NCBI GenBank assembly: GCA_028289135.1
Contig: JAQGGW010000002.1
Coordinates: forward strand, 36,255 to 100,254
Reading direction: 5' to 3'
DNA: 64,000 nt
Origin: Candidatus Saccharimonadota bacterium
GTDB taxonomy: Bacteria > Patescibacteriota > Saccharimonadia > Saccharimonadales > JACDBH01
In this document: piece by piece, positions 16,883 through 53,776 of the stretch
Numbering within the stretch: the first letter of the stretch is position 1
How the letters are laid out: every line of letters starts with the position of its first letter
Translations under genes and position numbers: made by a program
Notes under the pieces: model-generated
Seen by the model: only the letters and a program-made list of their open reading frames with translations
Databases searched by the model: none
Told to the model about the DNA's origin: nothing

Positions 16883-17022
16883 TTGAGCAAATACCCATGA
16901 AGGTACCGTTCACGCGCGGTGAAGTTGCTGCCGAGCCTATATACAGTAATAGCCTGGTCTCGGCAGACAACTTCCCGGCTCCTCTCAGGGTCCTTTAGTA
17001 CCTTCCTAGGTATTTGCTCAAA
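16883..17022 (+). repeat. Long imperfect hairpin element 'D' (about 140 nt) downstream of the cysteine desulfurase gene
   Basis: Nested complementary arms: GAGCAAATACC/GGTATTTGCTC, GAAGGTAC/GTACCTTC, GAAGTTG/CAACTTC and CTGCCGAG/CTCGGCAG. Only one copy was seen in the window. Confidence 0.6.
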
Positions 17023-17065: not shown

Positions 17066-17305
17066 AAAAGTTCTAAATAAGTGACAACCGTCCGCAAGCT
17101 AAATCCCCTTCCGGCCTGGCTTGCTCATACACTCTTGCGGCTAAGGCTCGCCAAAGCTACAACAAAATCCAGCCGAGGACTGTTTGACGGAGCGTATAGC
17201 TCCTAGTTCCGCAGGCTTGTTGTAGTCTTTGGCAAGAGGCTTACCGAAGTGGGTATGTGGCATGTCAGGCTGGAAGGGGATTTAGCTAAGAAAGTAAAGC
17301 TTGAG
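17066..17305 (-). repeat. Structured element 'A', copy 1 (about 190-nt hairpin plus conserved tails; candidate ncRNA or MITE-like repeat)
   Basis: The reverse complement aligns with 41843-42075. Base and apex are conserved (AGCTAAAyCCCCTTCC...; CAAGCCTGCrGAACT...TCAAACAG.C.TCGGCTGGATTTT). The mid-stems differ in sequence but stay complementary. Confidence 0.7.
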
Positions 17306-23352: not shown

Positions 23353-23485
23353 ACTCCTTGGAAGTTTCGGCACATTGATTTAGCCGCTGGAGACGTGTTT
23401 ACGCTATTAAATCAACGTGCCTAAACTTCCCGTAAAGCTCACCATGTATTTGAAAGCTTTGTGAAGCCCCCGGATGGGGCTTAAC
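23353..23485 (+). repeat. Structured element 'B', copy 1 (23-bp-arm hairpin plus small GC hairpin)
   Basis: GGAAGTTTCGGCACATTGATTTA...TAAATCAACGTGCCTAAACTTCC plus GTGAAGCCCCCGGATGGGGCTTAAC. It is near-identical in the hairpins to the reverse complement of 42083-42215. It lies between convergent atpC and the 333-aa gene. Confidence 0.75.
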
Positions 23486-25400: not shown

Positions 25401-25551
25401 AAGTTTTATATATTCATATGATATAAATGTAAATAAATAATGAAAAATATTTGAAAATAAAACTGAGAAAATTAAATTTGATTACCTAAAAAGCTTATGC
25501 TATTATTTTCTGGAACAGGCAGTTATTTTAAAATAAAAATGAGAGAGTGTT

Positions 25552-26757
25552 GTGGGAAAAAGTAAATATATTACTTATGGTTTTTTTGATTTTATAAAAA
25601 AAGCTTTTTATATAGCCGGTGCAGCTATGATTACTATAAGTACGTTATTATTAATGGCTCCACAAAGCGCATCGGCTGCCGCAGGCACGCCGCGTATGAT
25701 AATAATGAGTACCTCGTCAAATGCAGTAGCAGCGACAACGACATATCAGGTGCAGTTTAAAACTATGTCAACTTACACCGGCCAAGCCATAGTAATTGAC
25801 TTCTGTACTTCACCTATCCTGGGCAGTACATGTACCATTCCTACTGGTTTTACTGTAGGCGGTACGCCATCTGTCACAACCAACACCGCGCCAATGACCT
25901 CGCAAGTATGGACATCAACATCAGCAAACTCTGGCAGAACGCTTAAGATGACCCAAGCGACTGGTGTTTCATTTACAAGCGCCACAACTGCTGACTTTAC
26001 AATCAATGCCGTACAAAACCCAACAGCATTGGGTACCTTTTACGCACGCATTTATACCTACGCTGCCACAGCAGGTGCGACAAGTTATACGGATACAGCT
26101 CCTGATACAGGTGCAACCCATGTAGATGACGGCGGTGTCGCTCTTTCTACAGATAATATAGTTACAGTGACCGCGAAAATTCAAGAAACTCTTACCTTCT
26201 GTGTCTTTACGAGTGTTTTAACAACCGGTGTAAGCTGCCCTGGAACTGTTTCTGGTATCAAGCTTGGTGATACCAACGGTGTGCTCGCAAGCCCTACAAC
26301 TGCATATTTGTCCTCAACAAATGCCTCAACACCACTCTATGCCCAGCTTGGTCTTGCGAGCAACGCCACGGCTGGCGTTATAGTGCGGGCAAAATCTACG
26401 GGACCATTACAGTCTGGAGCGAATTCCATACTGGGTACAAACGGTGGAACGGGTTCCTGCCTGACAGATCCTGTAACAACTTCTTCAGAATATGTTGGCT
26501 TTAGAGTTACCGCCGGTACTGGCGGTACCGGTACTCAAACAGCGGATCCAGCATACGCTTGCGGCGCAAGCAATAGTCATAGCTGGGATTCAACGCAGCT
26601 AGCACTTGCTATTGGTGACCCAATACTATCAACTGCTGGCCCATCTACTGAGCCAACGACAGAAGCTTTAGTGGACTTTGTGGGTAAATCGTCAACTACG
26701 ACCAAGCCAGGCACATACGCACTGACAATGACTTTTATTGCGACCGGTTCTTATTAG
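25552..26757 (+). CDS. Secreted beta-rich surface protein, paralog 1 (401 aa)
   Basis: Signal peptide ends SASA|AAGTPRMIIMS. Motifs include FCTSPILGSTCTIPTGF, QETLTFCVFTSV and the C-terminal KPGTYALTMTFIATGSY. It is a tandem paralog of 26898-28088. Confidence 0.65.
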   Translation: MGKSKYITYGFFDFIKKAFYIAGAAMITISTLLLMAPQSASAAAGTPRMIIMSTSSNAVAATTTYQVQFKTMSTYTGQAIVIDFCTSPILGSTCTIPTGFTVGGTPSVTTNTAPMTSQVWTSTSANSGRTLKMTQATGVSFTSATTADFTINAVQNPTALGTFYARIYTYAATAGATSYTDTAPDTGATHVDDGGVALSTDNIVTVTAKIQETLTFCVFTSVLTTGVSCPGTVSGIKLGDTNGVLASPTTAYLSSTNASTPLYAQLGLASNATAGVIVRAKSTGPLQSGANSILGTNGGTGSCLTDPVTTSSEYVGFRVTAGTGGTGTQTADPAYACGASNSHSWDSTQLALAIGDPILSTAGPSTEPTTEALVDFVGKSSTTTKPGTYALTMTFIATGSY

Positions 26758-26897
26758 TATAGTACGTATATTAAATTGAAGCCGGCATAAGAGTAAGGGT
26801 GTGGATAAGTGCATCAATAATCTAATTGTGGCGCTAAACTGTTTATGTTACATTTCTTCTTGTAGGAAAACCAAATAAAAATTAAAAGGAAAATATA

Positions 26898-28088
26898 ATG
26901 TCAAAAATATCTCGCTTAATGAAGCGAATTTCATATATCACCGCTGCGACGGTGATCAGTCTGGGCTCCCTGCTTGGATTTGTGTCGCAAAGCGCATCAG
27001 CTGCTGCAGGCACGCCGCGTCTAATAATGATGAGTAACTCATCGAATGCTGCCGCAACCGCGACAACCGGTTATCAAGTGCAGTTTAAAACGATGTCAAC
27101 ATATACAGGCCAGGCTATTATTGTTGATTTCTGTACATCACCTATTCTAAGTACAACGTGTACAGCTCCAACAGGTTTCAGCGCCGCTGCCGTAACCATA
27201 ACGACTAACACTGCTCCGATGAACACCCAGACATGGACTGCAGCTGCTATAAACTCAAACAGAACAGTCAAACTTACTCAGGCTACTGGCGTGTCGTTTA
27301 CATCAGCTACTACCGCAGACTTTACGCTGAACTTCATCCAGAACCCTACGGCATTAGGTACATTCTACGCTCGTATTTATACTTACTCCGCTGTAGCCGG
27401 TGGAACGAGTTATGTAGACACCGCTCCTGATACAGGCGCAACACATGTTGACGATGGTGGTGTAGCACTTTCTACAGATAACACTGTTACTGTGACAGCC
27501 AAAGTCCAAGAAACTCTTACCTTCTGTGTTTTCACTAGTGTCTCAACAACAGGTGTAAGCTGCCCTGGAACAATTTCCGGTGTGGTCTTAGGTGATACTA
27601 ACGGCGTTCTATCAAGCACTACTACTAACTACCTCTCCAACACTGCTGGTGTAACACCGTTCTACGCACAGCTTGGTCTGGCGAGTAACGCTACAGGTGG
27701 TGTAATAGTGCGAGCAAAATCCACAGGTACATTAACTTCAGGCGCTAATACACTTGCTACGTCAGGTACTGGCTCGGGCTCATGTACTGCCGACTCAGCT
27801 GCCGCAGGAACAGAACAGTTTGGCTTTAACGTCACTGCTGGTACTGGTGGTACTGGAACGCAAACGGCTGACGCAGGTTATGCTTGTGGTGCTGGTAGTC
27901 ATAGCTTTGACACAACCAACACGCCAAACCTAACAAGTGCAACAGGTGACCCAGTACTAAGTACTGCTGGCCCATCTACCGAGCCAACAACCGAAGCATT
28001 GGTACAGTTTATGGCTAAGGCATCGACAACAACCAAATCTGGTGTCTATACCTCAACATTTACCTTCATTGCAACAGGTTCTTACTAA
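26898..28088 (+). CDS. Secreted beta-rich surface protein, paralog 2 (396 aa)
   Basis: It has the same signal-peptide end (SASA|AAGTPRLIMMS). Long identical blocks are shared with paralog 1 (TALGTFYARIYTY, TAPDTGATHVDDGGVALSTDN, LSTAGPSTEPTTEALV). The C-terminus is KSGVYTSTFTFIATGSY. Confidence 0.65.
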   Translation: MSKISRLMKRISYITAATVISLGSLLGFVSQSASAAAGTPRLIMMSNSSNAAATATTGYQVQFKTMSTYTGQAIIVDFCTSPILSTTCTAPTGFSAAAVTITTNTAPMNTQTWTAAAINSNRTVKLTQATGVSFTSATTADFTLNFIQNPTALGTFYARIYTYSAVAGGTSYVDTAPDTGATHVDDGGVALSTDNTVTVTAKVQETLTFCVFTSVSTTGVSCPGTISGVVLGDTNGVLSSTTTNYLSNTAGVTPFYAQLGLASNATGGVIVRAKSTGTLTSGANTLATSGTGSGSCTADSAAAGTEQFGFNVTAGTGGTGTQTADAGYACGAGSHSFDTTNTPNLTSATGDPVLSTAGPSTEPTTEALVQFMAKASTTTKSGVYTSTFTFIATGSY

Positions 28089-31968: not shown

Positions 31969-33012
31969 ATGTCAAAGAAAGTTTATGTTGGCCTCTCTGG
32001 AGGCGTAGATAGTTCTGTCACGGCAGCTTTGCTCAAAGAGCAGGGCTATGACGTTGTGGGCGTTTATATGAAAAACTGGAGCAAGGATCTGCCCGGTTTT
32101 ACTTGCCCGTGGAAAGAGGATTTTACAGATGCCAAGCGGGTTGCGGTGCAGCTTGGTATCCCGTTTAAAATGTATGATTTTGAGACCGAATACCGCCAAA
32201 AGGTTGTGGACTACATGGTGGCCGAATACCAGGCCGGCCGGACGCCAAACCCCGACATTATGTGCAACCAAGAGGTAAAGTTTAAGCTGTTTTTGGAAAC
32301 AGCGCTTGAGGATGGCGCAGACTATATCGCAACAGGCCACTATGCCGCTACCAAAGACGGCCAACTGCTGCGAGCCAAGGACGACAACAAAGACCAGACC
32401 TATTTTCTCTACCGGGTGACTGAATCAGCCTTGCAGAAAACGCTCTTCCCGCTGGGGGTTTATTCAAAGCCCGAGGTGCGTGAGCTTGCTAAAAAGTTCG
32501 GCCTGGTAACGGCCGCAAAAAAAGAAAGCATGGGCATTTGCTTTGTTGGTAAAGTGGGGATTAAGGACTTTTTGCTTAACGAACTTGGCCCGCAAAAACA
32601 CGGTGACATTTTGGACCAAAACGGGGTCAGGATTGGCGAGCACGACGGCGCGATTTTTTATACCATTGGGCAGCGCCACGGGCTGGACGTTGGCGGCGGC
32701 TTGCCGTATTACGTTACATCTAAGGATATGAAAAAGAACGAGGTTTACGTTACGACTGACATTTCCGACGAGCGCCTATGGCACAAAGAGCTAAAATTGG
32801 GAGACATGCATTGGATAAACCAACCGCCAAAAGAAGGTGCCAAACTGCAGGTCCGCACCCGGCACCGCGCAGCATTGGTGAACTGTGATATTTATCACAC
32901 TTCTGAGGGCGCAACCCTTAAACTTGGCGATGATATCCGAGCCCTAACGCCTGGCCAATCGGCGGTGCTATATAGTGGCAACCACGTGCTCGGCGGCGGC
33001 ATAATTATCTAA
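31969..33012 (+). CDS. mnmA: tRNA-specific 2-thiouridylase
   Basis: The PP-loop is GLSGGVDSSV, with NPDIMCN, KDQTYFL and MGICFVG motifs. TGaTATAAT lies 9 nt upstream of the ATG. Confidence 0.9.
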   Translation: MSKKVYVGLSGGVDSSVTAALLKEQGYDVVGVYMKNWSKDLPGFTCPWKEDFTDAKRVAVQLGIPFKMYDFETEYRQKVVDYMVAEYQAGRTPNPDIMCNQEVKFKLFLETALEDGADYIATGHYAATKDGQLLRAKDDNKDQTYFLYRVTESALQKTLFPLGVYSKPEVRELAKKFGLVTAAKKESMGICFVGKVGIKDFLLNELGPQKHGDILDQNGVRIGEHDGAIFYTIGQRHGLDVGGGLPYYVTSKDMKKNEVYVTTDISDERLWHKELKLGDMHWINQPPKEGAKLQVRTRHRAALVNCDIYHTSEGATLKLGDDIRALTPGQSAVLYSGNHVLGGGIII

Positions 33013-40766: not shown

Positions 40767-41833
40767 TGGCATACAAAGTCAAAAAAAATTCACATCGTTT
40801 GCGCAAAGCTCTTATCATTTTTGTAATTATTGTAGCGGTTGTTGGCGTAGGCGCTTTGCTTGTGGTCCGCCGCATCTACACCGAAAACCTGCGGGCTGTA
40901 ACTCCAGACGTTCACACCCAAGTGGTTGTCGCTATTCCGGCTGGGTCTTCGCTAAATCAAATTGCCCAGATTTTAAAGACAAAACAGGTCATCAGGGCCG
41001 ACTGGGCGTTTAAACAATACGTCCGTAGTCACGAGCTGGGTGACAAACTAAAAGCTGGCACTTACAGGCTTTACAGCGACGAAAACGTGGGCACAATTGC
41101 GAACTTTTTGGTAGCTGGAAAAGTGGCGGTTGATCTGTTTACCATCTTGCCGGGCCAGCGGATTGACCAAATCCGTAAGACGTTTATTGACGCCGGCTTT
41201 ACGGCTGCCGATGTCGACAAAGCATTGGACGCAAACAACTACGCCGGCCACGCGGCTCTAGTGGACAAACCAGCGGCTGCCAGCCTAGAGGGCTATTTAT
41301 ATCCTGATTCTTTCCAGCGCACCGCCGACACCAGCCCAACGACCATTGTTGTACAGTCGCTCGACGAAATGGCAAGTTACTTAACCGCCGACCTTCGTAG
41401 TGCCTATGCCGCCGAAAACCTTACCACCTACCAAGCCATTACATTGGCAAGTATTGTCGAGCGCGAAGTTGCCAGCCAGGAAGACCGGGCCACAGCTGCC
41501 CAGGTATTTTTAACGCGGATCAAGCAGGGTATGCGTTTGCAGTCCGACGTTACTGTTATTTATGGCATGGCGCTTGCGGGCAAAGATACCTCCATTGTCG
41601 ACACCAGCTTTGCCTCCCCATATAACACATTTTTGCATGACGGCCTGCCTGTTGGTCCAATATCCAACGTTACCAAAAGCGGCCTTCAAGCTGTAGCCCA
41701 CCCCTCTTCCACCGACTATCTATATTTTGTAGCTGGTGACGGCTCCGACTATGGCAAGACCTATTTCTCCAAAACAATTGCCGAACACCAAGCCGCTGTA
41801 GCCGCCCACTGCAAAACCTGCGCCCAGCAGTAA
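40766..41833 (+). CDS. mltG: Endolytic murein transglycosylase (YceG-like)
   Basis: It has an N-terminal TM, ASLEGYLYPDSF, ASIVEREV, and YNTFLHDGLPVGPISN. Confidence 0.85.
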   Translation: MAYKVKKNSHRLRKALIIFVIIVAVVGVGALLVVRRIYTENLRAVTPDVHTQVVVAIPAGSSLNQIAQILKTKQVIRADWAFKQYVRSHELGDKLKAGTYRLYSDENVGTIANFLVAGKVAVDLFTILPGQRIDQIRKTFIDAGFTAADVDKALDANNYAGHAALVDKPAAASLEGYLYPDSFQRTADTSPTTIVVQSLDEMASYLTADLRSAYAAENLTTYQAITLASIVEREVASQEDRATAAQVFLTRIKQGMRLQSDVTVIYGMALAGKDTSIVDTSFASPYNTFLHDGLPVGPISNVTKSGLQAVAHPSSTDYLYFVAGDGSDYGKTYFSKTIAEHQAAVAAHCKTCAQQ

Positions 41834-41842
41834 CCCACTATT

Positions 41843-42075
41843 TAAGTTTTCTCCTCTTAGCTAAACCCCTTCCAGCCTGACATGACTGATCCGCACAACG
41901 GTAAGCTCCCAGTCAAAATAACAGCAAGCCTGCAGAACTCGGCACTTAACGTGCCTTCAAACAGCTTCGGCTGGATTTTGCTGTTATTTTGACGGAGCTT
42001 AGCCGTAAGTGCGGATAGCATGCTCAGGCTGCAAGGGGGTTTAGCTTGCGGACGTTTATCCCTTATTCGTAACTT
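41843..42075 (+). repeat. Structured element 'A', copy 2
   Basis: A hairpin spans 41859-42046 and includes a perfect 16-bp stem (41912-41927 with 41978-41993). The apical mini-hairpin is GGCAC-TTAAC-GTGCC. The element begins 10 nt after the mltG stop. Confidence 0.7.
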
Positions 42076-42082
42076 ACTCCCC

Positions 42083-42215
42083 GTGAAGCCCCATCCGGGG
42101 GCTTCACATGACTTTAAGCTACACAGTTAGTGTTGCGGGAAGTTTCGGCACGTTGATTTAATAGCGTAAAACTGTCTCCAGCGGCTAAATCAATGTGCCG
42201 AAACTTCCAAGGAGT
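42083..42215 (-). repeat. Structured element 'B', copy 2 (inverted relative to copy 1)
   Basis: Its reverse complement matches 23353-23485 almost base for base in both hairpins, while the linker between them differs. It abuts element A copy 2 with a ~7-nt gap. Confidence 0.75.
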
Positions 42216-42500
42216 AAAACGAAGAGAGCATAAAAAACAGACTTTTATGGTTGTAATGTAGAGAAAAAGGTGTTTTTTGAGGGTTTTTGAATAACAGGGG
42301 TGGAATTTGTGGATAACAGGGGTTAAAAACCTTTTGCAAGGGTTGACCATAATGTGGGTAGTTGATACACTTTTAGATACGGCTTTAAGAGGTGTTCAAT
42401 CTGTTTAACAGATAAGACACAGGAAGCCGTTGAATACGCATTTAATAAGATAGAACTTTTACACAATAGTGCAGTCCAGGATGAAAGCCGAGCACAAAAG

Positions 42501-43736
42501 TTGAGATGTATACAGAAATACATTGAGACTTTTTGTCGCAGGCTTTCGCCTGGAATGTGCATTGTGTATAAGTTATATAAGGAGAAAGCTATTCGTAGCC
42601 TAACCCGTTTGACTGAATTACCTAAAGATGCGACAAATTCAGCCATATCACTCAAGACGAAATTATCCCGCACAGTAACGGTCAAGCGTTACCGCAAACG
42701 CTTTATTCGTTATGGTTTATTAGTTGGTAACTTGGCAATTGTTGCTGTGGCTGCCATGCTTGTGCTGCATAATCCAAGCGATAAAATGCCACACAGCAGC
42801 GCCGCGGTTGCTGACTCGCAGGCAACTAACCCTCTAGATACACTATCTGCCGCCGACATTGCTGTAACGGCTGCTCGTATGACTAACTTGGTAGAGACAA
42901 CGGCTGTTACAAACCAGGCTGATTCGGTGGCTGCCGACCTTAATACGCACGTCGTGGACTATGCTGTTGTGCCTAAACCGCAGATCCTACCCTCTGTAAC
43001 CAAGACAAAGGCCGATATCAAAGACTACACAGTCCAGAACGGCGATAGCTTGGGCGACCTGGCTACAAAGTTTGGTGTTACAAGCGACAGTATTAAGTGG
43101 TCTAACGGACTCACTTCCGCGACATTAACTCCTGGCAACGTTTTGGCTATTCCGCCAATTGACGGGATTGTTTATACCGTAAAAACTGGAGATACGGCTG
43201 AAACACTGGCTTCCAAATACTCTGCAAACAAAGACCAGATTACGGTTTTTAACGACGCCGAGGTAACGGGTCTTAAGGCCAACGATCGTATTGTCGTGCC
43301 CGGTGGCAGCATCGCTCCACCGCCGCCAGTGACAACAACTTATTATGGGGGCAATTATGGAGGCGGTGTCGTAACGGCAATCTATAGCGGCAACGGCTAT
43401 GACTATGGATGGTGTACCTGGTATGTTTCAAACCGCCGTGCCGAGATTGGCCGCCCAGTGCCAAATAACCTTGGCAACGCTTATAGCTGGTACGTAATTG
43501 CCCAGCGCGCTGGTTTGCCCACTGGCGGCAGTCCAGAGGTAGGCGCGGTCGCAGTAAACCAAGGCGGCAACCATGTATCTGTTGTGGAACAAGTTAATGA
43601 TGATGGCAGTTTTTGGATTTCGGAAATGAATGCCAGCGGGCAGGTTAGCATGACGGACTCGCGCGGTGCTGGTGGCTGGGGTCGTATAGACTATAGATTA
43701 GTTCCTTCAGTTGGTTCTCTTAAATTCATTTATTAG
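42501..43736 (+). CDS. Peptidoglycan hydrolase: N-terminal TM, 2 x LysM, C-terminal CHAP amidase/peptidase
   Basis: LysM repeats are YTVQNGDSLGDLATKFGV and YTVKTGDTAETLASKYS. CHAP motifs are GWCTWYV, NAYSWY and GNHVSVVE. The start is uncertain: AAGGAG (42579-42584) lies 6 nt before an in-frame ATT at 42591. Confidence 0.8.
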   Translation: MRCIQKYIETFCRRLSPGMCIVYKLYKEKAIRSLTRLTELPKDATNSAISLKTKLSRTVTVKRYRKRFIRYGLLVGNLAIVAVAAMLVLHNPSDKMPHSSAAVADSQATNPLDTLSAADIAVTAARMTNLVETTAVTNQADSVAADLNTHVVDYAVVPKPQILPSVTKTKADIKDYTVQNGDSLGDLATKFGVTSDSIKWSNGLTSATLTPGNVLAIPPIDGIVYTVKTGDTAETLASKYSANKDQITVFNDAEVTGLKANDRIVVPGGSIAPPPPVTTTYYGGNYGGGVVTAIYSGNGYDYGWCTWYVSNRRAEIGRPVPNNLGNAYSWYVIAQRAGLPTGGSPEVGAVAVNQGGNHVSVVEQVNDDGSFWISEMNASGQVSMTDSRGAGGWGRIDYRLVPSVGSLKFIY

Positions 43737-43997: not shown

Positions 43998-44086
43998 CAT
44001 CAAAACAGATCTGGTTGTAGTACTTTTGACATTTTTGTAGTATAATTACATAAGAATTTTGTTGAAGTTAATAAAAGGCCGTAAAA

Positions 44087-45361
44087 ATGTTTGTAGACAG
44101 AGTAAACGTTGGTATAGAAGCAGGCGATGGCGGCAATGGCTATGTTAGTTTCAGGCAAGAAAAATTTATCGACCGCGGCGGCCCAGATGGTGGTGACGGC
44201 GGCAAGGGCGGTAGTATCGTTTTGGTGGCTTCTCGTAATCAAAACACTCTGGCAAACTTCCGTTTCCAGCGCGCGTTAAAAGCACCAGACGGCGAACCGG
44301 GCTTTAAGCAGCGTATGCACGGCCGCAGCGGTATTGATTTAAAAGTTCCCGTCCCAGTTGGAACGGTTGTCTTAACCGAGGACGGTATTGAGCTAGCCGA
44401 TCTAAATGAAGACGGCCAAGAATTTGTTGTGGCCGCAGGTGGCAAAGGCGGCTTTGGAAATGCTCACTTTGTAAGCTCTGTACGCCAAGCGCCAAAAGTC
44501 GCCGAACGCGGTGAAGCCGGTGACCGACTAAACGCCGTGTTTGAGCTGCGTATGATTGCCGATGTTGGTTTGGTTGGCCTTCCAAACGCTGGCAAATCTA
44601 CGCTCCTGAGCGTTATCAGTAACGCCAAGCCAGAGATTGCTAATTATCCTTTTACAACCCTAACACCAAACCTTGGCGTTGTTGACGTCGACAAAGGCAG
44701 CTCGTTACTTATTGCCGACATTCCAGGACTTATCGAAGGAGCATCCGAAGGCAAAGGCCTTGGCGACGAATTCTTGCGCCACGTGGAGCGCACTAAGGTG
44801 CTAATCCATCTAATTGACGCCTACCAAGACGACATCCCAGCCGCCTATAAAACTATCCAAAAAGAACTGCACGACTATAAAAACGACCTCAGTACCAAGC
44901 CCCAAGTCGTGGTTATAACTAAAATTGAAGGCCTGGATGATGAAATTGTCGCTGATCTTCTAAAGCAGCTTAAAAAGTTAGTCCCTGCCAAAACCCCGCT
45001 GATGGCAATCTCAGCCCAAAGCGGACAAGGCGTTAAAGAGCTACTATACGCGGTTAAGAAACAAGTTACTGCTATCGAAAAGCTTGAAAAAGCCGCCAAG
45101 GACGAAGAAGACGCCACGCCCGTCTACCGACTGCAGCCAACCGAAACCAGCTTTAGGGTTACCAACCACGGTGATTACTTTACCGTAACTGGCCACCGTA
45201 TTGAAAAATTTGCATCACGTACGCACTTCGACGACGAAGAAGGCGAGCGCCGGCTTAAAGACATTATGAAAAAGATGGGTATTATGCGCGAACTTGAGCG
45301 CCAAGGCATAATACCTGGCCAAAAAGTCATCGTCGGATCCTATGGGGATATTGAGTATTAG
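44087..45361 (+). CDS. obg: GTPase Obg/CgtA
   Basis: The Obg fold has Gly-rich repeats (GDGGNG, GGPDGGDGGKGG). G1 is GLPNAGKST and G3 is DIPGLIEGA. An OCT-like C-terminal domain is present. Confidence 0.93.
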   Translation: MFVDRVNVGIEAGDGGNGYVSFRQEKFIDRGGPDGGDGGKGGSIVLVASRNQNTLANFRFQRALKAPDGEPGFKQRMHGRSGIDLKVPVPVGTVVLTEDGIELADLNEDGQEFVVAAGGKGGFGNAHFVSSVRQAPKVAERGEAGDRLNAVFELRMIADVGLVGLPNAGKSTLLSVISNAKPEIANYPFTTLTPNLGVVDVDKGSSLLIADIPGLIEGASEGKGLGDEFLRHVERTKVLIHLIDAYQDDIPAAYKTIQKELHDYKNDLSTKPQVVVITKIEGLDDEIVADLLKQLKKLVPAKTPLMAISAQSGQGVKELLYAVKKQVTAIEKLEKAAKDEEDATPVYRLQPTETSFRVTNHGDYFTVTGHRIEKFASRTHFDDEEGERRLKDIMKKMGIMRELERQGIIPGQKVIVGSYGDIEY

Positions 45362-45364
45362 CAC

Positions 45365-45487
45365 GGGGGCTTTCGTACGTTGCACATTTTGAACGAATAG
45401 CTCCGCTCCGTTTCTCCATGTATTTCTGTATACACTCCGAATCCGGTGCTCGCTATTCGTCCAAACTGCACTAGCGTACGAAACCCC
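45365..45487 (+). repeat. Structured element 'C', copy 1 (candidate 3'-UTR RNA motif)
   Basis: The conserved core is CCGTTTCTCCATGTAyTTCT.TGTACACTCCGAATmCGGTkCTC. Internal-loop strands TTGCACAT.TT and AA.CTGCACTA are flanked by two stems that differ from copy 2 yet remain complementary. It starts 4 nt after the obg stop. Confidence 0.7.
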
Positions 45488-45505
45488 TTTCCGTAGGGTC
45501 CATCG

Positions 45506-46081
45506 CTATTCGTTCAAACTTTTCTTAATGTAAGTACCGGCGCCATTTAATGTACCTTCCAGGGTCGCGGTCAAAGTATAACTTTGGCACTGCGTTTTAA
45601 CATTGTCGCAACCCGATGGCAAAACTTCATAAGAATAAGCATTTTCTTTTGGCGAGTTGACAATTTTACTGTCATTTCCAAGCGGATCTTGCAATGCGCC
45701 CAAATCCAATCCTTTGAGGTTGGTGTTTAAAAAATTAAAGTCGTTTAAGTTTGCGAGCGTTGGATAATAGCCGTTCTGTGCCCAGTAGGCTTCAATCTGA
45801 CCGTGCATAGCTTTAATGTCTGTTTCGCGTTCGGTATCGCGCGACTTGAGGTTAATACTGTCCGCGCCAGGTATAAGGCTAACAGGCGCGTGTTTTTTGC
45901 CATTATTTTGGACTATCCCCAAGACGATGCTTACCAAAACAATCAGCGCCAAAACACCAAAACTAATTCCAATAATGAGCTTCTTTTGCTTTGTCATAGG
46001 CTGATGCGCCGGCGGCATTGGCGACTGCTGCTGATAAGAAGGCATTTGTGGCGGCAATGGTTGCGGGCTCTGAGGATTCAT
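45506..46081 (-). CDS. Membrane-anchored protein with a pilin/GspG-like ectodomain and a Pro/Gln-rich N-terminus
   Basis: There is one TM (LIIGISFGVLALIVLVSIVLGIV). RDTERETDIKAMHGQIEAYWAQNGYYP resembles the helix-to-globular transition of type IV pilin/pseudopilin domains. There is no G|F...E prepilin site. Confidence 0.5.
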   Translation of the reverse strand: MNPQSPQPLPPQMPSYQQQSPMPPAHQPMTKQKKLIIGISFGVLALIVLVSIVLGIVQNNGKKHAPVSLIPGADSINLKSRDTERETDIKAMHGQIEAYWAQNGYYPTLANLNDFNFLNTNLKGLDLGALQDPLGNDSKIVNSPKENAYSYEVLPSGCDNVKTQCQSYTLTATLEGTLNGAGTYIKKSLNE

Positions 46082-46218
46082 TTTTGTTACTCGTTTATGT
46101 TACAGCCTAATAATAACAGATTATTTTTAATAAAATGCCAGCGCTTAAAAAAACGCTTGTGTTTGCATCTACCCAGGAATATACTTCACTTAAAGTTAGC
46201 AAAAACAAAAAGGAAAAT

Positions 46219-46632
46219 ATGACGAGTATTAACAAAAACCAAGGTGGTATTATTCATCATTTGCTGCTGCTAGTTATTTTCGTAGGAGTGGTTGGGGCTA
46301 TTGGTTTTACTGGGATGAAAGTATGGCGTAGCCACCAGGCAGGTGCCAGGACGTACAATTGGTCATATCTTTATCCAAATAACGACTGGAATGTCTATGC
46401 CTGCAAGACCTCAAGTACTACAGGAAAAGTCTATATAAAAAATCAAACTGGCTATAAACTGCAAACTACAATCAGTAACTTAGGTACTATTGATGCCGCC
46501 GCGCACAATGCAAGCAATGTCTACGATGTGACTGCGATAGATGGTACGCTTACTGGAAATAGCCGGTCATTACAGTCAGGCTCGGGCACAAGTTCTTATA
46601 GTAAGCAGTTTGCCAGCCTAAACCCTTGTTAG
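46219..46632 (+). CDS. Hypothetical secreted/anchored protein with a degenerate prepilin-like N-terminus
   Basis: MTSINKNQGG|IIHHLLLLVIFVGVVGAIGF parallels the KNQSG|F..E pilin signal at 1772 but lacks Glu at +5. AAGGAAA lies upstream of the ATG at 46219. The ORF-track start is 46135. Confidence 0.45.
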   Translation: MTSINKNQGGIIHHLLLLVIFVGVVGAIGFTGMKVWRSHQAGARTYNWSYLYPNNDWNVYACKTSSTTGKVYIKNQTGYKLQTTISNLGTIDAAAHNASNVYDVTAIDGTLTGNSRSLQSGSGTSSYSKQFASLNPC

Positions 46633-46683
46633 CTACTGTTAAAATAGATTCGTTTTATATTGTCGTGGTAAACTGGCACTACT

Positions 46684-48132
46684 ATGAGTGCCAGTTTTTA
46701 TTTTTATGACCTTGAGACAACTGGGATAAATTCGCGCAGCGGGCGGATTATGCAGTTTGGCGGCCAGCGCACGGATATGAACCTCAAACCCACTGGTGAG
46801 CCGGACAATATTTTGGTCAAGCTTAGTGACGATACATTGCCAGAACCCGATGCCATCATGATTACAGGCATTACCCCGCAGGCAACGCAGACGGAAGGCA
46901 TTACCGAAGCTGAATTTTTAAAGTATTTCCAGTCGCACATTTGTGCCCAGGACACCATTTTTGTTGGTTTTAACAATGTCCGCTTTGACGACGAGTTTAT
47001 CCGCCACACGCTCTACCGCAACTTTTATGACGCTTATGAATGGTGCTGGCAGGATAAACGCGGGCGCTGGGATTTGCTTGACGTGGTGCGTATGATGCGC
47101 GCGCTTCGTCCAGATGGTATCACATGGCCTGTTGGCCCGGACGGTAAAGCAAGCAACCGTTTGGAGCTCTTAACCAGCGCTAATAACCTGGACCACACTG
47201 CTGCGCACGATGCTTTGAGCGACGTTAATGCAACCATTGCCGTGGCACGCCTGCTGCGCAACAAACAAACCAAAATGTTTGACTACCTGCTTTCGATGCG
47301 CGATAAGAAAAAGGTGCAGGAGTTAGTAAACGGCGGCCAGCCGTTCGTCTATACTAGCGGCAAATATCCTAGCGCCTATGAAAAAACTACCGTGGTGCAG
47401 ACTTTGGGCGATCATCCGGGCAAGCAGGGAGTTTTGGTTTATGATCTGCGCCGTGACCCAGGCTTTCTCGAAAATATGTCCCCGGAAGAAATTGCAACTT
47501 TGTGGCAATTACGCGAAGAAGACGAAACAAAGCGTTTTCCGATTAAAACCCTGCAGTTTAACCGTTGCCCCGCCGTTGCGCCGCTCGGAGTTTTAAACGA
47601 CGAAAATAAAGAGCGGCTTAAGATTGATATGGATGCCATTAGCGCCAACAGGGCTGCATTAAACAAAATTAAAGATCTGCGTGAGCGGCTTTTAAAAGCC
47701 ATTGCAATTATGGACAAACTTCGCCAGGCAACGTTTTTGACGGATATTAAAGACGTTGATAACCAACTTTACGATGGATTTTTTAATGACGGCGACAAAA
47801 CTGCGATGGCCGTGGTGCGCGCGGCTGAAAAAAGTGAGATCAGCAGCTTGCACCTTACGTTTAAAGACGGCCGTCTCAATACGCTTTTCCCGCTTTATAA
47901 AGCACGAAATTATCCGCAAAGTTTAAGCCAGGAAGAGCGTGAAATTTGGGAAAAGTTCCGATTTAATAAGCTGGTTGGCGGCGGGGATAAGAGTGCTCTT
48001 AGCAAATATTTTATGCGTATTAGTGAAATTGCCAAGCGTCCCGGCCTGACTAGCGCCCAGCAATATCTTTTAGAAGAATTACAGCTGTACGGTGAAAGCA
48101 TTATGCCTGAACCATTAGATATGGACGAGTGA
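46684..48132 (+). CDS. sbcB: Exodeoxyribonuclease I
   Basis: The DEDDh exonuclease motifs are FYDLETTG (Exo I), FNNVRFDDEF (Exo II) and HDALSDV (Exo III). At 482 aa it has the size and SH3-like/helical C-domain layout of ExoI. Confidence 0.85.
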   Translation: MSASFYFYDLETTGINSRSGRIMQFGGQRTDMNLKPTGEPDNILVKLSDDTLPEPDAIMITGITPQATQTEGITEAEFLKYFQSHICAQDTIFVGFNNVRFDDEFIRHTLYRNFYDAYEWCWQDKRGRWDLLDVVRMMRALRPDGITWPVGPDGKASNRLELLTSANNLDHTAAHDALSDVNATIAVARLLRNKQTKMFDYLLSMRDKKKVQELVNGGQPFVYTSGKYPSAYEKTTVVQTLGDHPGKQGVLVYDLRRDPGFLENMSPEEIATLWQLREEDETKRFPIKTLQFNRCPAVAPLGVLNDENKERLKIDMDAISANRAALNKIKDLRERLLKAIAIMDKLRQATFLTDIKDVDNQLYDGFFNDGDKTAMAVVRAAEKSEISSLHLTFKDGRLNTLFPLYKARNYPQSLSQEEREIWEKFRFNKLVGGGDKSALSKYFMRISEIAKRPGLTSAQQYLLEELQLYGESIMPEPLDMDE

Positions 48133-52709: not shown

Positions 52710-53381
52710 ATGAGCAGCGACAAAATTACGCTGAAACTTACAGAACGTACCGAAATGGGCAAAGCCGTTAAAGCTCTTCGCCGCAGCGGTATGGTTCCTG
52801 CAAACGTATACGAACGTGGACATGATTCGGTTGCGGTCAGCGCGTCTTTTACCGAACTAACTAAAGTTTACCGCCAAGCCGGTAAGCACCACCCGGTAGA
52901 ATTATCTCTTGGCAGCAAGAACTATCTTGCCATGATCAAAGACGTTGACATCGACCCGACCAAGGGTTGGGTGCGCCACGTTGGCTTCCACGCCATCAAC
53001 AAGAACGAAACCGTTGTTGCTGAAATTCCAGTTCATATTGAAGGCGAAATTCCTGCTGAGCGCGTTAGCTTGCTTGTACTCCGCCCAATGGATACTGTTG
53101 AAGTTGAAGCTCTTCCAGCCAACCTTCCTGACGCTCTCACAATCGACGGCGCCAAGCTGGCCGAAATTGGCGATAAGCTTTCTGTAGCTGATATTATTGC
53201 GCCAACCGGCGTTAAGATTTTGACCGATCCAGATCAGACTTTGGCTGTTGTCGAAGAACCAAAAGACCAGATGGCTGAAGCCGCTGCCGAAGAAGCTGAA
53301 AACGCTGAATCTGCTGCTCAAGTTCCATCAGAAAATGGCTTAGCGGACGCTGACGAACCCGCCGCCGAACAGGCTGAATAG
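52710..53381 (+). CDS. rplY: 50S ribosomal protein L25/general stress protein Ctc (long form with acidic tail)
   Basis: LRRSGMVPANVYE...V is followed by a beta-barrel and a Ctc-type second domain. TGgTATAAT and AAAGAGG lie upstream. Confidence 0.85.
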   Translation: MSSDKITLKLTERTEMGKAVKALRRSGMVPANVYERGHDSVAVSASFTELTKVYRQAGKHHPVELSLGSKNYLAMIKDVDIDPTKGWVRHVGFHAINKNETVVAEIPVHIEGEIPAERVSLLVLRPMDTVEVEALPANLPDALTIDGAKLAEIGDKLSVADIIAPTGVKILTDPDQTLAVVEEPKDQMAEAAAEEAENAESAAQVPSENGLADADEPAAEQAE

Positions 53382-53390
53382 CGCTCTGGC

Positions 53391-53503
53391 CTCACTGGCT
53401 TGCACATCTTGCACGTAAGCCTGCGATCCGTTTCTCCATGTACTTCTCTGTACACTCCGAATACGGTTCTCGGCTATACGCACAAGCTGCACTAAGCCAG
53501 TGA
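53391..53503 (+). repeat. Structured element 'C', copy 2
   Basis: It has the same conserved core and internal-loop strands as 45365-45487. The outer stem is TCACTGGCT (53392-53400) with AGCCAGTGA (53495-53503). It starts 10 nt after the rplY stop. Confidence 0.7.
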
Positions 53504-53512
53504 ACCCTAGTC

Positions 53513-53776
53513 TTACATAGGCTGGCGGAGGTATTCGTGGCCTTCGATGTCGCGTGTCATAAGGCCTGCATCTATCATGCCGCGCCGCAGTAATGGCCAA
53601 TCTTGGAAGGTGTGCCACTGGTTTATTATCTCGTTAACTTCTTTTTCTGTGTAGGGTTTTTCAAGTTCGAATTTTTCGACGATATATTCCATTACAAGCT
53701 TTTTGTCGGCATGCTTTTTAGGCCAAGTAACAACTTGCCCTTCTTCGTTTAAAAAACGCGAGACATCTTTTTGCAT
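53513..53776 (-). CDS. DUF2087-like small protein, last gene of the ABC operon
   Basis: 87 aa. ...EKEVNEIINQWHTFQDWPLLRRGMIDAGLMTRD..G.EY resembles the DUF2087 pattern. Its start lies 1 nt after the upstream ABC stop. Confidence 0.5.
   Translation of the reverse strand: MQKDVSRFLNEEGQVVTWPKKHADKKLVMEYIVEKFELEKPYTEKEVNEIINQWHTFQDWPLLRRGMIDAGLMTRDIEGHEYLRQPM

Follow-up and report, generated by a model that had tools for sequence, protein, structure and literature searches.

ERIC (IRU) elements, known from enterobacteria and Vibrio, are imperfect palindromes of ~125 bp that lie in transcribed spacers, conserve their sequence across species, are found in both orientations in mRNA and vary strongly in copy number between relatives. 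The Correia elements of Neisseria (CREE or NEMIS) form long RNA hairpins that are substrates for RNase III and alter mRNA stability. REP sequences protect the mRNA lying upstream of them and can influence translation when a stop codon is nearby; REPINs, which are hairpin-forming doublets, are thought to move in single-stranded form. Saccharibacteria and other CPR bacteria have small and streamlined genomes, thought to be poor in repeats, and to our knowledge very little is known about the non-coding elements of these organisms. A literature search returned no paper linking Saccharibacteria or Patescibacteria with repeats or RNA motifs of the kind considered here. The present analysis concerns Element C, three copies of which lie in a 64-kb stretch of Saccharibacteria DNA (the window). 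The Obg protein encoded there shows 100% identity to that of a Candidatus Saccharibacteria MAG. On balance, we are inclined to regard it as an undescribed family of ~120-bp palindromic repeats that is specific to Saccharibacteria, MITE-like in origin and active as hairpins in mRNA.

Two of the copies had been recognized in an initial annotation, which placed them directly behind the stop codons of obg and rplY; their coordinates and sequence features agree with that description. Copy A (45365-45487) follows obg (44087-45361, plus strand), its stem beginning 3 nt downstream from the TAG at 45359-45361, and faces a convergent 191-aa pilin-like ORF (45506-46081, minus strand). It scores 105.8 bits with the covariance model R2 (see below) and its better-folding strand is the minus strand (minimum free energy -60.3 kcal/mol, against -50.6 for the plus strand). 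Copy B, delimited by the model at 53388-53509 (53391-53503 in the initial annotation), starts a few nucleotides after the TAG (53379-53381) of rplY (52710-53381, plus strand) and scores 110 bits; here, too, the minus strand folds better (-66.6 against -48.8 kcal/mol). Its convergent neighbour is a DUF2087 gene (53513-53776, minus strand), the last in an ABC-transporter operon, where it ends a three-gene array of ABC-transporter paralogues (53778 to ~59000). Since no DUF2087 gene lies between rplY and the ABC gene in two relatives (L006 and L107), this gene seems to have arrived with copy B. Copies A and B are identical in 83% of alignment columns and have in common the apical core and two boxes, TTGCACAT and CTGCACTA, which lie on the plus strand at 45380-45387 and 45466-45473 in copy A; the boxes of copy B are at 53400-53407 and 53487-53494. 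Copy C (42452-42574; 107.5 bits), which the initial annotation had missed, was revealed by a repeat finder as an inverted pair. It is inverted relative to A and B, with the plus strand as the better-folding one and boxes UAGUGCAG at 42467-42474 and AAUGUGCA at 42554-42561, and it lies upstream of a LysM-CHAP gene (gene end 43736). Given a promoter-like site at 42343-42371, it is likely to be part of the 5' leader of that gene. A three-box pattern matches the window four times, namely at the three copies and at an unrelated stretch (32146-32266), with 0.02 matches expected by chance.

In what follows, F denotes the orientation of the initial annotation and R its reverse complement. On R, Element C folds into a single irregular hairpin of ~50 bp with purine-rich internal loops. 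The features conserved on this strand are UAGUGCAG, CGAGCAC, an apical CGUAC-loop-GUACG, GCGCAG and AAUGUGCA. The tips of the arms, as we read them in the printed sequences, are semi-conserved, (T)AGGAC...GTCCT(A); the arm consensus runs from (T)AGGAC through ~10 nt to TAGTGCAG. The fold of R is better than that of F by ~11 kcal/mol (10-18 in all three window copies), and none of 200 shuffles equals the fold of copy A or copy B (z from -7.4 to -10.7). Refolding bears out that the two stems flanking the boxes, P1 and P2, differ between copies A and B and yet stay paired. The initial annotation had called P1 completely different in the two copies: it does differ, but it is not unrelated, since the P1 stems across the family go back to one arm, now diverged, whose tip is semi-conserved. 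Likewise, the box strands had been presented as conserved and non-complementary. Their conservation holds, whereas the lack of complementarity does not: on the opposite strand they pair as a 5-bp helix, GUGCA/UGUGC, with two invariant G·U pairs. In copy A, the minus-strand readings of the two boxes, AUGUGCAA and UAGUGCAG, provide the 3' and 5' halves of this helix, respectively.

A strict version of the three-box pattern, including the apical loop, matched none of 185,579 species-representative genomes and a single metagenome contig (L001). The apical loop differs among copies and was therefore dropped from the pattern; with the apex free, 56 loci were found among GTDB species representatives. 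A covariance model built from four copies (R1) gave 56 matches in 49 of these 56 loci, from 37 assemblies. Nearly all of the assemblies confirmed in this way are labelled Saccharibacteria, Saccharimonadales or unclassified "bacterium". The exception (L028, contig CAZOIG010000434.1, 3.5 kb, labelled Gammaproteobacteria) carries a good copy (93 bits) after a YebC-like gene; it probably stems from Saccharibacteria and was misassigned in binning. Seven pattern loci from other phyla all fail model R1. The same is true of the 36 pattern hits in viral contigs, which we consider chance matches for this reason. A second model (R2), built from the 56 R1 sequences, gave 69 matches in 470 kb, diverged and decayed copies included. 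As some copies are matched on both strands, these correspond to ~64 distinct copies, in 37 Saccharibacteria species-representative genomes. The density is about one per 20 kb, based on 6 copies in ~130 kb of DNA not selected for the element (the window together with relatives anchored on Obg). One copy (L068, 3682-3875) is an expanded 194-nt variant in which an extra hairpin, GCATATACATGC...GCATGTATATGC, is inserted in the apical region; it sits between two convergent genes, 4 nt from either stop codon.

Element C matches no Rfam family. At gathering thresholds, Rfam 15 recognizes in the whole window only the tmRNA gene (1294-1689, 77 bits) and finds nothing in five copy-bearing loci; E-value searches with copy A and with 41800-42620 return nothing beyond weak matches, attributable to chance, with models of lncRNA or miRNA precursors. 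The covariation of its helices, proposed at first from two copies, is very strong across ~60 copies from at least 37 species. In the 56-sequence alignment, paired cells amount to 88.2%, compared to 65.3% in shuffles and 28-49% when the partners are slid, and double changes are seen at 39 of the 42 pairs; the alignment was fitted to the model, which favours the structure, and the margin is nonetheless very large.

Sequence comparisons indicate that the family shows signs of having transposed. In genome JBGTNV01, four copies are 91-97% identical from CAGG to CCTG, end sharply and have unrelated flanks. Direct repeats of 5-7 bp (CACTT, ATACC, GAACAT and TTTACA) lie immediately outside these young copies, all four of which share the same orientation relative to the upstream gene. 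Four loci of this genome together hold 6 copies, and the window holds 3 in 64 kb. At the other ~53 copies, which are older, no target duplication is detectable. For the young copies, the closest relative by PyrG is 84% identical, too distant for the spacers to be aligned with an empty site. Copies A and B are absent from relatives with 83-94% identity in Obg, where the space behind obg and rplY leaves no room for a copy. The spacer between yceG and the LysM gene, ~770 nt long in the window, measures 90 nt in one relative (L002). Three relatives instead have a copy elsewhere, in the spacer that separates the LysM-CHAP gene from the conserved obg promoter: L106 and L107 retain it intact, and in L005 it has decayed. 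All that L002 has at this site is a short palindrome corresponding to the outer stem found in L106. The promoter itself, TTGACA-17-TATAAT, is found upstream of obg in all six aligned relatives (L002, L005, L006, L105-L107), and a similar sequence precedes obg in the window (~44020-44060). On the other side of obg, the stretch extending to an ExoI-like gene (45488-46700 in the window) is a hot spot of gene turnover in comparison with L002, L005, L006, L106 and L107: the pilin-like ORF of the window is replaced in relatives by Pyr_excise, peptidase S26 or small ORFs. Element C resembles MITEs in being ~120 bp long and non-coding, with inverted arms that pair over their full length and have semi-conserved tips, and in occurring in several copies per genome at unrelated sites, with presence or absence varying among relatives.

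A property of Element C that is difficult to rationalize is the asymmetry between its strands. In 31 non-orthologous copies, the wobble state that reads G·U on R outnumbers the one that reads A·C by 28 to 5 in P1 (p = 7e-5) and by 30 to 5 in P2 (p = 2e-5), or about 6:1 in each. R folds better than F in 51 of 53 copies and still does so in 32 of 36 non-ssb copies when the invariant helix is neutralized. The asymmetry holds in copies of either transcriptional orientation and is also found inside the orthologous group of copies behind ssb (15 states versus 5). Together, the excess of G·U pairs and the better folding of R indicate that selection has acted on the fold of R, which in ~80% of the copies is the host-antisense strand. 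Mismatches that weaken the hairpin on whichever strand is transcribed would not account for the pattern, as reversed copies show the same asymmetry. A mutation bias can be rejected by reasoning, since deamination on the coding or the lagging-template strand would be expected to act in the opposite direction. The better-folding strand is the C-rich strand (GC skew) in 50 of 58 loci, a relation confounded with gene orientation; a tie to replication meets the same confounding with gene direction, and copy C and the L068 pair are inverted within one replichore.

One could envision that the element acts as a single strand, the one antisense to its host gene, in the form of folded ssDNA or cDNA or of an antisense RNA, and that this strand is recognized by a postulated dedicated enzyme. 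We regard this possibility as unlikely, and its DNA version as quite unlikely. In the latter, the strand would be ssDNA (the excised or replicated strand, or cDNA from a read-through transcript) and would be acted on by a recombinase, by an HUH enzyme or by a reverse transcriptase, following a logic akin to that of the folded bottom strand of integron attC sites, of REPIN/RAYT or of retron msDNA. The strand asymmetry described above, including its persistence in reversed copies, within the ssb group and against known strand-biased mutation pressures, would find an explanation, as would the common orientation of the four young copies; insertion primed at the target would go well with duplications that vary in length. 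However, neither an integrase nor a RAYT or reverse transcriptase is found near any copy, the attC boxes RYYYAAC/GTTRRRY are missing (our own reading of the alignment) and the hosts are core genes rather than cassettes. Furthermore, reactions of the IS200/IS605 and attC types leave no target duplication, and some of the asymmetry comes with the family consensus and was not independently selected. If true, this scenario would add to CPR bacteria a mobile element or recombination site of a new, structure-specific kind, combining an attC- or retron-like logic with its own boxes and a target duplication; some copies, such as those behind ssb, would have been taken over by the host.

When the copies are viewed as F, 46 of 58 have the end of an ORF (60 codons or longer) between -12 and +10 nt from the element; viewed as R, 10 of 58 do, and for random positions the figure is 5.8%. 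Stop-codon adjacency, noticed initially at obg and rplY, is therefore general across the family. The stop codon lies mostly 13-23 nt ahead of the TGCAC box, 15 nt being the commonest distance, which corresponds to the base of P1. That the tip of the element supplies the stop codon as a rule is not supported, stop-codon usage being near background. The hosts are mostly housekeeping genes: ssb, rpsR, rpsU, rpsO, rpmA, rplY, infA, atpE, atpC, secA and pnp, along with pyrG, fmt, obg, yebC, lepB, ftsX and a methyltransferase gene. The ssb hosts form a set of 14 orthologous loci, encoding proteins that end in ...DIPF. The copy behind ssb has been kept in these 14 species; the P1 common to them marks the copies as orthologous, whereas P2 has been rewritten, with compensation in place. 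In our reading of the sequences, the outer stem even follows a change from TAA to TAG at the ssb stop codon in two lineages. Identity between copies of one genome is only 45-75%, apart from the JBGTNV01 burst, and the fold is nonetheless kept. This sets the family apart from an active MITE family and brings it closer to a functional RNA family.

Such findings could be taken to support the view of the initial annotation, according to which Element C is a cis-acting RNA of the sense strand, located in 3' untranslated or intercistronic regions, whose boxes bind a protein or ligand that controls translation or ribosome genes. Conserved boxes, covarying stems, the compensated copy behind ssb and the predominance, within one genome, of old and diverged copies with an intact fold are all in its favour. 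So is the enrichment of ribosomal-protein and translation genes among the hosts: the link with translation, suggested at first by obg and rplY, is reinforced by the recurrence of genes for S18, S21, S15, L27, L25, IF-1, Obg and ssb (S6 operon), but it does not extend to all hosts, as secA, pyrG, ftsX and the methyltransferase gene are unrelated. On the sense strand, however, the boxes form tandem C·A/A·C mismatches, the loops are pyrimidine-rich and the stems contain about six times more A·C than G·U, the reverse of what is seen in functional RNAs; ~8 copies are reversed in their transcripts, and the element carries signatures of transposition. A ligand- or protein-binding RNA in the obg and rplY 3' untranslated regions thus appears doubtful: the structure is selected on the antisense strand, where the supposed internal loop is a helix with G·U pairs, both orientations occur, and there are 5-7 bp duplications and sites that are empty in relatives.

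Most copies are probably read as part of longer transcripts. The next gene is co-directional in 31 copies and its ribosome-binding site is often 15-30 nt on, so that the element must be transcribed through, in the F sense. The ~8 copies reversed relative to the transcript include copy C and one just upstream of rplY (L034). Terminator scans detected no canonical terminator adjoining A or B and no terminator-like site, of the kind made of a GC hairpin and a T-run, at A, B or C; in all but ~3 of 58 copies, the flanks lack a T-run on either strand. Since A and B lie between convergent genes that have no canonical terminator nearby, both of their strands are probably transcribed. It could be argued that Element C copies are themselves ordinary terminators, bidirectional or lacking a U-tract, without a life of their own. 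They are found at the 3' ends of highly expressed genes, and A and B are the only hairpins between their convergent genes. We find this very unlikely. Boxes conserved across 37 species (our reading of the alignment) are foreign to ordinary terminators, as are near-identical copies flanked by target duplications; many copies are located in operons that need read-through, as in the 26-49 nt spacer from ssb to rpsR, and canonical hairpin-plus-T terminators exist in the same lineage. Finally, the initial annotation had raised the alternative of an independent sRNA. It is most improbable that the copies are small-RNA genes in their own right, read from the better-folding strand and hence antisense to the end of the gene next to them: the purine-rich loops and conserved G·U pairs of that strand are typical of RNA, and the three window copies would be transcribed on it as untranslated regions of neighbouring genes, but the 58 copies show no promoter-like motif at a fixed distance upstream of it (in 31 of them this space is taken up by the next gene, with its ribosome-binding site and start), and no U-tract follows the hairpin.

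The interpretation that we modestly favour combines mobility with an effect on mRNA. From the comparisons above, Element C would be a family of MITE-like palindromic repeats that are transcribed together with their host genes and act as hairpins in mRNA, in the manner of ERIC, Correia and REP sequences; many copies would be old and held by selection for the fold. The layout would consist of two long inverted arms, each with a tip, (T)AGGAC, a variable stretch and then UAGUGCAG or AAUGUGCA, around a semi-conserved centre. New copies would arise through transposition with duplication of 5-7 bp of target, presumably catalysed by an enzyme acting in trans for which the conserved boxes may serve as binding sites. 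In a compact genome, the survivors would be mainly those inserted in short spacers just behind stop codons. Transcribed through as part of the host mRNA, the element would end the cistron with an irregular hairpin of ~50 bp. Its likeliest consequence would be that mRNA 3' ends are generated or shielded there, or that operon transcripts are divided into segments, either because 3'-to-5' exonucleases are blocked or because a double-strand RNase cuts the hairpin. Several findings run against this model. A search of 0.55 Mb of Saccharibacteria DNA brought to light neither an autonomous partner nor a transposase whose ends match; in this sample there are no isolated half-sites flanking an ORF and recurrent ORF clusters include no transposase. 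Target duplications are seen at four young copies only and vary in length from 5 to 7 bp. Lastly, a simple function as a 3' hairpin in mRNA does not predict a fold on the host-antisense strand in ~80% of the copies.

Other repeats are found in the window. A second family, with inverted copies at 41855-42080 and 17068-17291, is ~225 nt long, self-complementary and 77% identical; one copy shares the expanded spacer between yceG and the LysM gene with copy C. It gives weak miRNA-like hairpin hits in Rfam and is absent from the other Saccharibacteria loci examined. The copy at 17068-17291 adjoins a separate inverted repeat of 24 bp (16883-17021), 92% complementary and with a 91-nt spacer. A third family (42076-42235 and, inverted, 23353-23485), ~135-150 nt long and 84-87% identical, is seen in the window only. 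It comprises a small GC hairpin, followed by a near-perfect hairpin of 23 bp (GGAAGTTTCGGCACGTTGATTTA...) and by AAGGAG; the start of its arm resembles the P1 consensus of Element C. In addition, 25543-28036 is occupied by tandem paralogous genes (repeat families D2, D4, D7 and D8, 71-80% identical) for secreted-looking proteins.

With about one site per 20 kb, at gene 3' ends and at spots where close relatives differ in gene content, Element C is likely to shape the fate of mRNA and the plasticity of the genome in Saccharibacteria. The 3' ends concerned include those of ribosomal-protein, ATP-synthase, ssb, secA and pnp genes. The family also offers an unusually clean case of a fold selected on the host-antisense strand, which could reveal how palindromic repeats move. 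On the practical side, a covariance model for the family would spare annotators from mistaking these hairpins for riboswitch-like RNAs or terminators.

How does Element C compare with known systems? Its inverted arms extend over its full length and young copies have 5-7 bp duplications, which separates it from IS200/IS605 derivatives. Many copies per genome, housekeeping neighbours and the lack of any visible reverse transcriptase distinguish it from retron msr-msd loci. The resemblance to attC sites is closer. These are also imperfect palindromes (60-140 nt) found at the 3' end of ORFs, with a fold conserved over sequence, conserved boxes, unpaired features and a folded strand that is antisense to the host. 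In contrast to attC, Element C has UAGUGCAG and AAUGUGCA as boxes and no AAC/GTT at its ends, occurs in single copies and not in arrays, next to genes that are not integrase genes, and is associated with core hosts and target duplications. Like REP, BIME and REPIN sequences, it is an extragenic palindrome located just 3' of genes or between cistrons. However, REP units measure 20-40 nt, carry a conserved GTAG on the 5' side, resemble one another closely within a genome and are linked to a RAYT gene, whereas Element C is a single 120-nt hairpin devoid of a GTAG-type motif, its copies within a genome mostly falling in the 45-75% identity range; no RAYT-like cluster is present among recurrent ORF clusters in the limited sample of 0.55 Mb.

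Correia elements share with Element C small size, inverted arms, the absence of autonomy, insertion beside genes and co-transcription. They are set apart by duplication of TA, by well-conserved terminal repeats of 26 bp and by the presence of hundreds of similar copies, as opposed to the 5-7 bp duplication, the variable mid-arm and the mostly old copies of Element C. ERIC is similar to Element C in size, in palindromy, in its transcribed intergenic sites, in its sequence conservation across species, in its occurrence in either orientation and in the swings of its copy number between relatives. The two families inhabit different phyla and show no sequence relation, as far as the absence of Rfam hits can tell. 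Unlike ERIC, Element C combines stems that have strongly diverged and yet compensate with a 5-7 bp duplication and with one clearly structured strand.
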